From the NCBI GenBank assembly GCA_903813345.2, contig CAIIXF020000001.1:26474001-26538000 (forward strand): a stretch of DNA of 64,000 nucleotides. The letters run 5' to 3'. The position numbers were made by a program, and so were the translations under genes. The first letter of the stretch is position 1, and every line of letters starts with the position of its first letter. This document shows, piece after piece, positions 60,601 through 63,592 of this stretch. The notes under the pieces are model-generated. The model was not told where the DNA came from. It saw nothing but the letters and a program-made list of their open reading frames with translations, and searched no databases. The DNA is from Owenia fusiformis (Eukaryota).

Positions 60601-63592
60601 TATTTCAAGATTTCAGGTATGTACAATCTAAAATAGCCTGTGAATGCTAAACTAAATACGACTCTCACACTCACCTCCAATAATAGCCCTTATTTGAAGT
60701 ATATTTAGGTTTTTTATTTACGTGTTTCAAAACTTAATGGTTTTTCCTGGGTCTGCAACTATAGACAAGGCCATAATTACAGACACCATGTTACAGACAC
60801 CGAATGCCAAACACTATCCACAAAAAAAGACTATAACAATATGTCAACAAAACAACTAACCTGTAACAACTTTTTAATCTCATTAGTGTCTAAACTGCTC
60901 TCATTGCTTGAATGTGTGTTTCTATTCTGCTCATTCTCCAGATCATCCATGAGTTTAGCCCTCTCTACCAAAAGGTACGCTATCTGTTCTGTCACTGTTG
61001 AGCTAGCTATCTGCTCCAACCCCTGTTGACTGAGCATCTCTTTGATATCATCATGTGTTCCACCTACAATATATAAGCAACTGAATTACATATCTCTCTG
61101 ATATCATCATGTGACCCACCTACAATATATAAGCAACTAAATGACACATCTCTTTGATATCATCATGTGACCCACCTACAATATATAAGCAACTGAATAA
61201 ATGTCTCTCTGATATCATCATGTGACCCACCTACAATATATAAGCAACTGAATGACATATCTCTTTGATTTCATCATGTGACCCACCTACAATATATAAG
61301 CAACTGAATAAATGTCTCTCTGATATCATCATGTGACCCACCTACAATATATAAGCAACTGAATGACATATCTCTCTGATATCATGTGACCCACCTACAA
61401 TATATAAGCAACTGAATGACACATCTCTTTGATATCATCATGTGACCCACCTACAATATATAAGCAACTGAATGACATCACTCGGATATCATCATGTGAC
61501 CCACCTACAATATATAAGTAACTGAATAAATGTCTCTCTGATATCATCATGTGACCCACCTATAATATATAAGCAACTGAATGACATATCTCTCTGATTT
61601 CATCATGTGACCCACCTACAATATATAAGCAACTGAATGACATATCTCTGATATCATCATGTGACCCACCTACAATATATAAGCAACTGAATAAATGTCT
61701 CTCTGATATAATCATGTGACCCACCTATAATATATAAGCAACTGAATGACATATCTCTCTGATTTCATCATGTGACCCACCTACAATATATAAGCAACTG
61801 AATAAATGTCTCTCTGATATCATCATGTGACCCACTTACAATATATAAGCAACTGAATGGCATATCTCTCTGATATCATCATGTGACCAACCTACAATAT
61901 ACAGTATAAGCAACTGAATAAATGTCTCTCTGATATCATCATGTGACCCACCTACAATATATAAGCAACTGAATGACATCTCTTTGATATCACCATGTGA
62001 CCCACCTACAATATATAAGCAACTGAATGACATATCTCTCTGATATTATCATGTGACCCACCTACAATATATAAGCAACTGAATGACATATCTCTGATAT
62101 CATCATGTGACCCACCTACAATATATAAGCAACTGAATGACATCACTCGGATATCATCATGTGACCCACCAACAATATATAAGCAACTGAATAAATGTCT
62201 CTCTGATATCATCATGTGACCCACCTATAATATATAAGCAACTGAATGACATATCTCTCTGATATCATCATGTGACCCACCTACAATATATTAGCAACTG
62301 AATGACATCTCTCGGATATCATCATTTGACCCACCTACAATATATAAGCAACTGAATAAATGTCTCTCTCAGATATCATCATGTGACCCACCTATAATAT
62401 ATAAGCAAATGAATGACATATCTCTCTGATATCATCATGTGACCCACCTTCAATATATAAGCAACTGAATAAATGTCTCTCTCAGATATCATCATGTGAC
62501 CCACCTATAATATATAAGCAACTGAATGACATATCTCTCTGATATCATCATGTGACCCACCTACAATATATTAGCAACTGAATGACATCTCTCGGATATC
62601 ATCATTTGACCCACCTACAATATATAAGCAACTGAATAAATGTCTCTCTCAGATATCATCATGTGACCAACAATATACATGATTGACGAAAAAACTGTCT
62701 TAACACCTCTGATACCATTATGTGACTCACCTACTATACATTGACAAATGACTGAGCATTCTCCACATTGATCCAGGGGGGAATAACCCCAGAGTTAAAA
62801 GTATTGAGATGACATATGTCTCTGATTGGTCAAAATTGACAGAATGGTGGCCTCAAAATTTTTGAAATACACTTCAAACAAAAAGATTCGAACAAACGAA
62901 GGTGGTATGCGAGTACATAAATATGTCTGTTATCTCTAAAGCTCTTGGGCTTTCTCTCCTTTTACACTGAACTACACTCAGTATTTGCATTCAATAACCT
63001 TTGTCTAGGGATACATTGAGACTTAATGTACTCACCTCCTGCAAGGTCTGCCTTAAGTAACTGGACCTCTGCCTTTAGTTGATCATTTTCCTCCTCAAAC
63101 TCTGCTGTTAGTGTCTCCCTTTCTTCTGAGAGACTCCTGATATGTTCAACATAGTTTTCCACCTCTTTCATCTCATCAGCCTGCTTCAGTCTCAATATAC
63201 CCATGTTGTCTAAGGCACCTTTAAGGTTGACCTAGAATTTAGAAATAGAGGATGCAATTAATGATGGAGTCAGGCTTCAGTCTAAATATAACCGTGTTAT
63301 ATATGTTAAAACCATGGTTATATATAGACTTTAAGGTTGGCCTAGAAATAAAATGGCACCATTTATCATGAAACCTTCAGATTTCAGTATCAATGGACTC
63401 ATATTATCTGAAGCACATTTAAGGTTGGCCTACAGGTTGGTATAGATTATTTCATTTTAATAATTTTTTGATACAACCTACCTCTGACTCTAAGTAAAGA
63501 GACCACACATGCTGGAGCTTCTGTTCTATTGTGCCACTAGAAACCACTCCATGCTCTTTCAGCTTGCGATCAATGTCACGTAGGTCCCCCAT
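39597..63592 (-). CDS. CCDC30: Long coiled-coil protein, CCDC30-like, about 1218 aa, 23 coding exons
   Basis: Phase-consistent GT-AG exons: 63592-63482, 63231-63036, 61063-60861, 60566-60411, 60216-60114, 59671-59529, 59247-59116, 58850-58737, 57872-57549, 57078-56637, 56155-56010, 50049-49849, 48967-48833, 48310-48227, 47979-47905, 47677-47660, 45697-45540, 45096-44931, 43631-43459, 41998-41834, 41478-41298, 41165-41148, 39809-39597. E/K/L/Q-rich heptad pattern throughout. The name rests on recalled similarity of EMKEVENYVEHIRSLSEERE, EQIAYLLVER and LQNRSHYLEEEN to CCDC30 proteins (not searched); the gene structure is more certain than the name. Confidence 0.75.
39961..40690 (-). mobile_element. 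Second long copy of the same HINE-like family, right end truncated
   Basis: Same left end (acaaaggattaacatgacaaaatgtcaccacc), same internal aagtcagatttgaa... units and ccaaccg-type microsatellite as 7170-8451. Confidence 0.75.
42123..43147. mobile_element. Mariner-type MITE (~1 kb, TA TSD, ~270-bp arms)
   Basis: ta|cgagggttgatcataaagttctcataatatc ... gatattatgagaactttatgatcaaccctca|ta. Confidence 0.85.
46885..47550. repeat. ~31-bp intronic minisatellite
   Basis: Units of ttgaccatgtgatcatgcaagataataaaca, cleanest at 47175-47480. Confidence 0.85.
48385..48430. repeat. (TGTAA)n/(TGTTA)n microsatellite
   Basis: tgtaatgtaatgtaatgttatgtaatg. Confidence 0.7.
50317..51068. mobile_element. Non-autonomous element with short inverted repeats and a ~130-bp terminal hairpin (possibly Crypton-like)
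   Basis: ttattccatga (50317) / tcatggaataa (50919); hairpin tattcaatgatt..gtgaaatacagaaaatattcttccc / gggaagaatattttctgtatttcac..aatcattgaata at 50936-51068. The superfamily is a guess. Confidence 0.45.
52379..52807 (-). CDS. Putative alternative first coding exon of the coiled-coil gene (acidic/basic, low-complexity N-terminus, 143 aa)
   Basis: Open frame MIDMSRNKKKG...ATEYD followed by GAT|gtatgt in phase 0, compatible with the phase-0 acceptor at 50049. An upstream acceptor at 52892-52893 is followed by an in-frame stop, so that part behaves as 5' UTR. Confidence 0.55.
61035..62670. repeat. ~58-bp minisatellite (about 28 copies) derived from an intron/exon junction
   Basis: Unit catatctctctgatatcatcatgtgacccacctacaatatataagcaactgaatga; the leftmost copy is the functional acceptor and exon start at 61063. 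Confidence 0.95.

Follow-up and report, generated by a model that had tools for sequence, protein, structure and literature searches.

A mirage minisatellite of copied splice junctions in intron 2 of the CCDC30 gene of Owenia fusiformis

Related systems and the Owenia array

Minisatellites that copy splice sites were described as "mirages" in amphioxus, where repeats lie over exon-intron boundaries in Adh3, troponin C, the globin genes BflGb6 and BflGb9, and PGBD5 (PMC3087553, PMC3902484). In these reports, many units carry AG/GT signals, array length varies between haplotypes, and regular splicing is undisturbed (PMC3087553); splice sites are duplicated without aberrant mRNA (PMC3087553, PMC3902484). 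Here we describe such an array in 64,000 nucleotides of the genome of Owenia fusiformis (GCA_903813345.2, contig CAIIXF020000001.1, positions 26,474,001 to 26,538,000 of the forward strand; this whole stretch is referred to as the window, and all positions below are counted from its first letter). The array lies at 61036-62668 and is a mirage minisatellite derived from the intron 2/exon 3 junction of its host gene, CCDC30.

Several features are shared with the published mirages. As described for BflGb6, the unit combines the 3′ end of an intron with the 5′ part of the next exon. AG/GT signals are present in many units, the authentic copy is at the edge of the array, regular splicing is retained, and there are signs of unequal exchange with less homogenized edge copies. 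The host is an annelid, whereas the mirages reported in Adh3, BflGb6, and the other amphioxus genes belong to cephalochordates. Dimensions also differ, with 28 copies of 56 bp in Owenia compared with 3-6 copies of 150-160 bp reported for BflGb6 and units of 10-72 bp for Adh3. In addition, all copies upstream of the authentic junction (hereafter decoys) differ from it at donor positions +5 and +6, a point that we did not find in the main-text passages on mirages. The array is unusually long (28 copies) and unusually clean for a mirage, and it is apparently the first outside cephalochordates and humans, the two groups that supplied the published cases in the literature searched. The kind of repeat has already been described, and a new mechanism is not demonstrated.

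A second group of related repeats contains AGGT "dual-specific" sites, which serve as both donor and acceptor and occur in tandem arrays in UBC and VCX3A (Duan et al. 2024; PMC10809524). Introns bounded by dual-specific sites in tandem repeats were reported in 8.4-fold excess. These authors proposed that dual-site repeat expansions are likely less deleterious since they are removable by splicing, and that the depletion of such sites from annotated junctions contributes to ending the splicing process (PMC10809524). The Owenia array resembles those of UBC and VCX3A in having one AGGT per unit (26 of 28 units) inside a transcribed, spliced gene, and the weaker donor at its authentic junction matches the depletion idea as put forward in that report (PMC10809524). 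The UBC and VCX3A arrays are described as coding and in frame, with use shown by junction and lariat reads, whereas the Owenia array is intronic, has a unit length that is not a multiple of 3, and is known from its sequence. Unlike the situation described for UBC and VCX3A, the donor of the annotated Owenia intron lies outside the array.

Ratchet points of recursive splicing were defined as tandem acceptor/donor sites followed by a cryptic exon of approximately 50 nt, the downstream donor of which is outcompeted by the ratchet donor (PMC8605326). An earlier note on this stretch, made from the letters alone, had taken AG/GT junctions that recreate a donor after ligation as the mark of such sites, in agreement with the published definition. 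Recursive introns of the fly were reported to measure 11,341-132,736 bp, with 1-6 sites and segments of at least 2.6 kb (bioRxiv 10.1101/006163). Judged from the arrangement of its sites, recursive splicing at the Owenia array would be structurally possible: as reported for Drosophila Ubx, kuz, and Bx, acceptor and donor are juxtaposed and the donor would be regenerated on ligation, a further donor approximately 50 nt downstream could define a cryptic exon, and the cryptic sequence is out of frame. In contrast, the Drosophila ratchets are described as single ultraconserved sites with a donor stronger than that of the cryptic exon, whereas Owenia has 26 young, near-identical sites with equal donors. 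The introns differ in length as well (1,972 nt in Owenia vs. 11-133 kb reported in the fly), and the Owenia intron lacks the great length that is typical, although not strictly defining, of ratchet introns.

Two human minisatellites also include a splice site. In F7 intron 7, the first unit of a 37-bp minisatellite spans the exon 7 donor, and the pseudo-donors were found to be functional but silent (PMC1557585). In ABCA7 intron 18, the exon 18 donor is part of a 25-bp repeat; one unit was reported to be retained at approximately 2%, and exon 19 skipping rises with repeat length (PMC5954066). As in these two genes, the terminal unit in Owenia contains the authentic splice site and identical pseudo-sites follow one another in tandem. 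The arrangement is the mirror image of that described for F7 and ABCA7, where donor copies lie downstream and the first is used, whereas the Owenia acceptor copies lie upstream and the last is used. Each Owenia acceptor copy is, in addition, a donor.

Finally, Hellsten et al. 2011 reported that an experimental tandem duplication across AGGT creates a removable GT...AG segment and leaves the mRNA unchanged (PMC3265369). That duplication, as described, was placed inside an exon and made a new intron, whereas in Owenia an existing intron was lengthened, 28-fold in unit terms. Intron creation by AGGT tandem duplication is also said to have occurred in the potato RdRp gene.

Structure and origin of the array

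The translation of exon 3 was 100% identical to a 1139-aa database protein from O. fusiformis. Exact spliced mapping of this protein onto the window gave 20 minus-strand coding exons between 63592 and 39600, and all 19 mapped introns were GT-AG introns, the shortest being 194 nt long. The protein belongs to Pfam family PF15742 (DUF4686; 84.7 bits, cut-off 31.3) and had 255 relatives at E ≤ 0.001, and among the best 120 listed many carry the name CCDC30. On this sequence similarity, the host gene is identified as the CCDC30 orthologue of O. fusiformis. Coding exon 2 (63036-63231, minus strand) ends in ...GCAGGAG in phase 1, in keeping with the GGAG end given in the earlier note; it was placed by the spliced protein mapping and is covered at 63033-63229 by contigs of two RNA runs, X6 and X8. 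Intron 2 (61064-63035, minus strand; 1,972 nt) has the donor GAG/GTGAGT and the acceptor ...TTGCTTATATATTGTAG/, where the slash marks the splice junction. Coding exon 3 (60861-61063, minus strand; 203 nt) starts with GTGGAA and has the donor CAG/GTTAGT. Both intron 2 and exon 3 were placed by protein mapping and spliced contigs.

Tandem Repeats Finder (TRF) reported one minisatellite at 61036-62668 (period 56, 29.4 copies, 88% matches) and, for the same array, higher-order periods of 111 and 165. The minus strand is the sense strand of both array and host gene. The 56-bp unit consists of the final ~27 nt of intron 2 and the initial ~29 nt of exon 3. In the sense direction, the units form a monotonous series of ...TTGCTTATATATTGTAG/GTGGGTCACATGATGATATCAGAGAG... 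from ~62670 down to 61064, which terminates with ...TTGTAG/GTGGAACACATGATGATATCAAAGAGATGCTCAG... at 61064/61063. The array extends to 61036, 28 nt inside exon 3, and the first ~29 nt of this exon are the terminal partial unit. The intronic part (61064-62668, minus strand), delimited by TRF, a junction probe, and unit parsing, holds 28 junction copies, and the 3′ half of the last unit (61064-61119, minus strand) is the branch-point and pyrimidine region plus AG of the authentic acceptor.

The 23-nt junction probe, with up to 3 mismatches allowed, gave 29 matches in the 64-kb window; every match is on the minus strand within 61044-62733 (0 matches expected by chance from 100 shuffles). The same search did not find the 56-bp unit elsewhere in the window. 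When units were parsed in register, 28 array junctions were counted upstream of the authentic one (n = 28). The earlier note had claimed about 28 tandem junction copies, and this number, together with all its coordinates and motifs, agrees with the parsed junctions and the TRF copy number. AG was kept in 26 of the 28 junctions and was lost before 62169 (TTG) and before 61835 (TAA). Twenty-five of the 28 read AG/GTGGGT and one reads AG/GTTGGT (61891). TAG/GTGGAA, at 61064/61063, was private to the authentic junction; the previously claimed distinction between this sequence and the TAG/GTGGGT of nearly all decoys was therefore confirmed. An older edge copy (62706-62750, minus strand; 3 mismatches to the probe) carries TAG/GTGAGT with its junction at 62731/62730, also as formerly described. 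In a degenerate edge unit at 62671 (62615-62691, minus strand) AG is gone, and the sequence shows loss of the AG/GTG core (TATATTGT-TGGTCACATG).

Each unit, from GT to AG, is formally a mini-intron of 53-60 nt and contains a branch-point-like motif, CTTAT, with its A at a distance of 46 nt from GT and of 10 nt from the unit's 3′ end. The units nearest to the exon in sequence (e.g., 61450 and 61175) match it over 29 nt, except at +5 and +6, and are followed by ~27 nt of intron tail. Beyond approximately +29, decoys pass into AT-rich, intron-like sequence; exon 3 instead continues as ...CAACAGGGGTTGGAGCAGATAG. The end of exon 2 (63036) would be followed by GTGGGTCACATG if joined to a decoy and is followed by GTGGAACACATG when joined to authentic exon 3. 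The words GGGTCA and CACATG are present in each unit. We take the former to be a candidate nuclear-receptor half-site and the latter a candidate E-box variant, and a transcription-factor array was considered.

The start of exon 3 (..DDIKEMLSQQGLEQIA..SEQIAYLLVER) lies within a block conserved in all of the 17 other bilaterian orthologues aligned, which came from nemerteans, hemichordates, molluscs, echinoderms, another annelid, and vertebrates. Of the residues encoded by exon 3, just the initial few (GGTH) belong to a variable linker in this alignment. The conservation across phyla shows that exon 3 is old and that the junction was the source of the repeat, not its product. An origin as a transposon or dispersed satellite that later captured the acceptor was rejected, given this conservation and the absence of the unit elsewhere in the 64-kb window. 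The founding event would have been a 56-bp duplication across the intron 2/exon 3 junction, taking in ~27 nt of intron and ~29 nt of exon, and later growth to 28 copies and 2 degenerate ones would have proceeded through multi-unit unequal exchange.

A three-unit block (62671, 62614, and 62560) is identical to a second block (62391, 62334, and 62280), and further variant units are exact duplicates of each other (62169 and 61504; 62115 and 61669). The majority of unit variants are common to several units via block duplication, and variation within the unit is concentrated mid-unit, at the seam of the exon-derived and intron-derived parts. The recurring blocks, the duplicated variant units, and the TRF periods of 111 and 165 indicate multi-unit unequal exchange in a young, homogenizing minisatellite.

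TRF returned 28 rows for the whole window; array formation as such is common in the O. fusiformis genome. A 91-bp satellite of approximately 100 copies was observed just downstream of the CCDC30 gene (23371-32986), in four blocks of alternating orientation (23371-26188 and 27547-29809 vs. 26998-27536 and 30619-32986). A 102-bp repeat (39224-39606; 3.8 copies, 97% identical) starts in the final 7 nt of the coding sequence of CCDC30 (end at 39600) and occupies the start of the 3′ untranslated region, making it a second young repeat that abuts a landmark of this gene. The arrays at 1308-3645 (period 447), 7262-8298 (periods 136, 148, and 284), and 40106-40600 (period 136) have similar consensus sequences (TTTGACCTT... 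and GGTCAAATTTGAA...). They appear to be one repeat family, present in both orientations, and one of them lies inside the last CCDC30 intron.

Splice-site strength and spliced products

Splice sites were scored with log-odds matrices built from the 19 donors and 19 acceptors of the host gene itself, small samples that make the scores rough. The junction of exon 2 with a decoy, GAG/GTGGGT, scored 10.3 bits (approximately rank 6 among the 19 donors), and that with the old copy, GAG/GTGAGT, scored 10.9 bits. The real intron-2 donor scored 10.0 bits (leave-one-out) and the best real donor of the gene scored 11.7 bits. Scoring thus bears out the previous claim that splicing to a decoy yields a usable donor. 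The authentic junction of exon 2 with exon 3, GAG/GTGGAA, scored 5.35 bits, which is similar to the gene's three lowest-scoring real donors (5.5, 4.8, and -2.5 bits), one of which reads AAG/GTAGAA. It had been called a non-donor in the earlier note, a description that does not stand: the authentic junction is clearly a weaker donor, approximately 5 bits below the decoys, yet it is no non-donor.

The authentic acceptor scored 7.44 bits (rank 9 of 19). Its 23-mer is shared by 15 of the 26 decoy acceptors, the scores of which ranged from 5.0 to 9.05 bits. Decoy acceptors are therefore as good as the authentic acceptor, and the donors regenerated by decoys match the real intron-2 donor. The GT at the start of exon 3 makes every copy a dual acceptor/donor site. 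The next donor within the array, 53-60 nt downstream, has the identical GTGGGT hexamer, and the two differ in the 3 preceding bases (GAG vs. TAG). All 27 possible joins of exon 2 to an AG/GT copy would encounter a stop within 7-56 codons, provided that no more sequence is taken out. Masking of the decoys by RNA structure was rejected: the last four units plus the exon-3 start folded with a minimum free energy of -65.7 kcal/mol (z = +0.81), and 156 of 200 shuffles folded as well.

Elsewhere in the gene, the constitutive exon-exon junction 12 (48832/48310) regenerates AAG/GTGTGG, which at 8.0 bits outscored 9 of the gene's 19 real donors. CCDC30 thus tolerates donor-like exon junctions at other positions.

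Sequencing evidence consisted of assembled contigs from four runs (X1, X2, X6, and X8; 4 of the 12 listed, with run types guessed). Such contigs show presence and not absence: rare variants are dropped, short-lived intermediates are invisible, and array length cannot be sized. In X6 and X8, which belong to the same study, one contig each chained exons 1-2-3-4 via three canonical joints, and the intron-2 joint skipped the 1,972 nt between 63036 and 61063. The exon contigs of these runs had word depths of 432 and 152. No joint of exon 2 to a decoy was present among the contigs listed for the four runs, contigs being blind to rare or transient products. The array bins at 61157-62710 had no contig cover among those listed for X6 and X8, although a contig joins across them.

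The contigs of X1 and X2, from two studies, were unspliced through exon-intron borders and of even depth, and these runs therefore resemble DNA. Parts of the array are present in them, among others in a contig (61062-61122) that crosses the last decoy and enters exon 3, and the repeat is thus no artefact of one assembly. The RNA contigs establish the final product, with regular splicing kept, and nothing on the route. A search for short database proteins with exon 2 and a decoy-encoded tail was uninformative, with 6 matches, all in other animals, and 0 in Owenia.

Three further observations concern the sequence around the array. An X2 contig skips 31 nt at 62693-62725, at the degenerate array edge, and shows 20 other differences over 62725-62987; it is probably a second haplotype with an indel beside the old junction copy. 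In intron 3 (60454-60806), an unspliced X2 contig had 12 substitutions and 15 gap positions over 353 nt, which points to high intronic heterozygosity in O. fusiformis. Stretches at 62801-62843 and 62918-62963 (intron 2, upstream of the array) and at 60789-60830 (intron 3) had word depths of hundreds to thousands in all four runs. Many contigs break off there into unrelated sequence, with loose ends at 62801/62835 and 60789/60827. These stretches behave as a high-copy dispersed repeat that is also found in RNA-derived contigs, possibly a small transposon.

Passage of transcripts through the array

The reading that we favor, with a probability of roughly 0.55, is that some of the transcripts are spliced into the array and then corrected by re-splicing or by copy-to-copy trimming, as a passive by-product of a GT-starting exon that let the array expand. 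The whole array lies within intron 2 and is spliced out with it, and the authentic acceptor, the last in the series, is the one used in the mature mRNA. Exon 2 spliced into any copy would recreate a donor equal to the original, so that entry would be no dead end, and copy-to-copy splices inside intron 2 would be harmless. We infer decoy use, stepwise removal, and neutrality, and we give a stepwise route for some transcripts slightly better than even odds. Re-splicing had been offered in the earlier note as the explanation of how the gene tolerates so many acceptors. The dual acceptor/donor structure of the copies bears out the structural premise of this claim; the general idea, however, was already in print for AGGT repeats (PMC10809524).

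Several observations weigh against this passive route. The RNA contigs show the final junction alone, not whether removal is stepwise or in one step. The regenerated donor shares its hexamer with the next donor in the array, and the rule that a ratchet donor outcompetes the donor of the cryptic exon therefore does not hold here. Transcripts could accordingly be expected to include 56-nt units, each of which would introduce a stop within 7-56 codons. A spacing of 53-60 nt, with a branch-like A 10 nt from AG, may be too tight for unit-by-unit removal, and the shortest of the 19 mapped introns measures 194 nt compared with 53-60 nt for the units. In addition, the private difference of the authentic copy at +5 and +6 could reflect selection, which would favor an adaptive reading.

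The possibility next in standing, to which we give appreciably less credence, is that decoy acceptors are essentially unused, that intron 2 is removed in one step, and that the array is intronic junk. The authentic acceptor would win since it alone precedes a real exon, 203 nt long and purine-rich, with the donor CAG/GTTAGT; past approximately +29, the AT-rich, intron-like continuation of the decoys and the ...CAACAGGGGTTGGAGCAGATAG of the exon are consistent with this. Binding of U1 snRNP to each AG/GTGGGT would perhaps block acceptor recognition there. The two spliced contigs hold the canonical joint only, and in the mirror case of human F7, identical tandem pseudo-donors were reported to be functional yet normally silent (PMC1557585). 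Silence is harder to reconcile with the decoys that carry the authentic 23-mer, in which branch region, tract, and AG are equal, and with the result that no RNA fold hides them (z = +0.81). The donor 53-60 nt past each decoy also makes for a unit on which exon definition could work, similar to the ~50-nt cryptic exons described for ratchet points (PMC8605326), and human intronic AGGT sites were reported to be in use more often than annotation suggests (PMC10809524).

A bolder version of re-splicing, which we consider doubtful, would restrict the acceptor-side expansion of mirage arrays to those in which every copy can remove itself as a ratchet unit; the Owenia array would then be a 26-step recursive-splicing ladder. 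Each entry into the array would regenerate a full-strength donor, to be passed on to the copy with the disabled donor (GT to AA at +5 and +6).

It is improbable, in our judgment, that the array is a selected recursive-splicing device, in which decoys would be used regularly, re-splicing would be required, decoy donors would be maintained, the authentic junction would be kept donor-poor, and copy number would tune efficiency. The structure fits the published definition of a ratchet point, with a tandem acceptor/donor and a donor ~50 nt downstream (PMC8605326), and the regenerated donors of decoy and authentic copies are 5 bits apart. Repeat length at the splice junction of human ABCA7 was reported to correlate with splicing (PMC5954066). 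Among the 26 array units with an intact AG, none has lost GT. The sole private difference of the authentic copy is GT to AA at +5 and +6, which turns GGG-TCA (Gly-Ser) into GGA-ACA (Gly-Thr) in a variable part of the protein. Its coincidence with these donor positions is suggestive of selection and was noticed post hoc. GT at +5 and +6 is found in all 28 units and in the old edge copy; consequently, the change took place in the exon once the first duplication had occurred, or else in the founder copy ahead of amplification.

Approximately 13 substitutions were private to single units, of which 2 destroy AG (~0.5 expected) and 1-2 fall at donor +3. None was seen at GT, +5, or +6, compared with ~0.7 expected for three key positions (GT and +5), a difference that is not significant. 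These private substitutions, too few in number, carried no significant signature of constraint on decoy donors or of donor avoidance, and the counts therefore provide no evidence of decoy-donor maintenance. Moreover, the AG/GT of the decoys was inherited from the GT-starting exon and not acquired, so that the decoy-specific part is limited to 2 nt at +5 and +6, and GAG/GTGGAA is no worse than real donors of the host gene. Selection is further disfavored by the youth and homogeneity of the array, which is probably not conserved, and by the 26 sites packed into 1.6 kb of a 2-kb intron that has no need for subdivision, whereas known recursive introns were reported to be 11-133 kb long, to have 1-6 ratchet points, and to be divided into segments no shorter than 2.6 kb (bioRxiv 10.1101/006163). 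Neither intermediates nor lariats were present in the contig data, which cannot show transient products.

Least likely is a leaky, mildly deleterious, and probably polymorphic array, in which uncorrected decoy splices or 56-nt inclusions would be degraded and CCDC30 output would fall with array length: the early stops in all 27 joins, the unit length not divisible by 3, and the single-unit retention of ~2% and inverse correlation of repeat length with expression reported for ABCA7 (PMC5954066) agree with it, whereas X6 and X8 yielded no array-bearing contig among those listed despite exon depths of 432 and 152, an absence that weighs only against abundant stable products; decay would hide those with premature stops. 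A leaky cost of this kind, hidden by decay, may accompany any of the other readings.

How the spliceosome selects one 3′ splice site among equivalents is still argued, and the Owenia array is a natural test construct for this choice: 26 acceptors with the branch region, tract, and AG of the real one precede it, and the gene is still correctly spliced. The human F7 minisatellite has served likewise for 5′ splice-site choice. The locus ties together three literatures, those on amphioxus mirages, dual-specific AGGT sites, and recursive splicing, and it suggests a testable reason for the expansion of some junction duplications. If each copy were indeed a self-removing ratchet unit, this would amount to a general rule for which splice-junction duplications survive, and array length would be a heritable dial on splicing speed and output.

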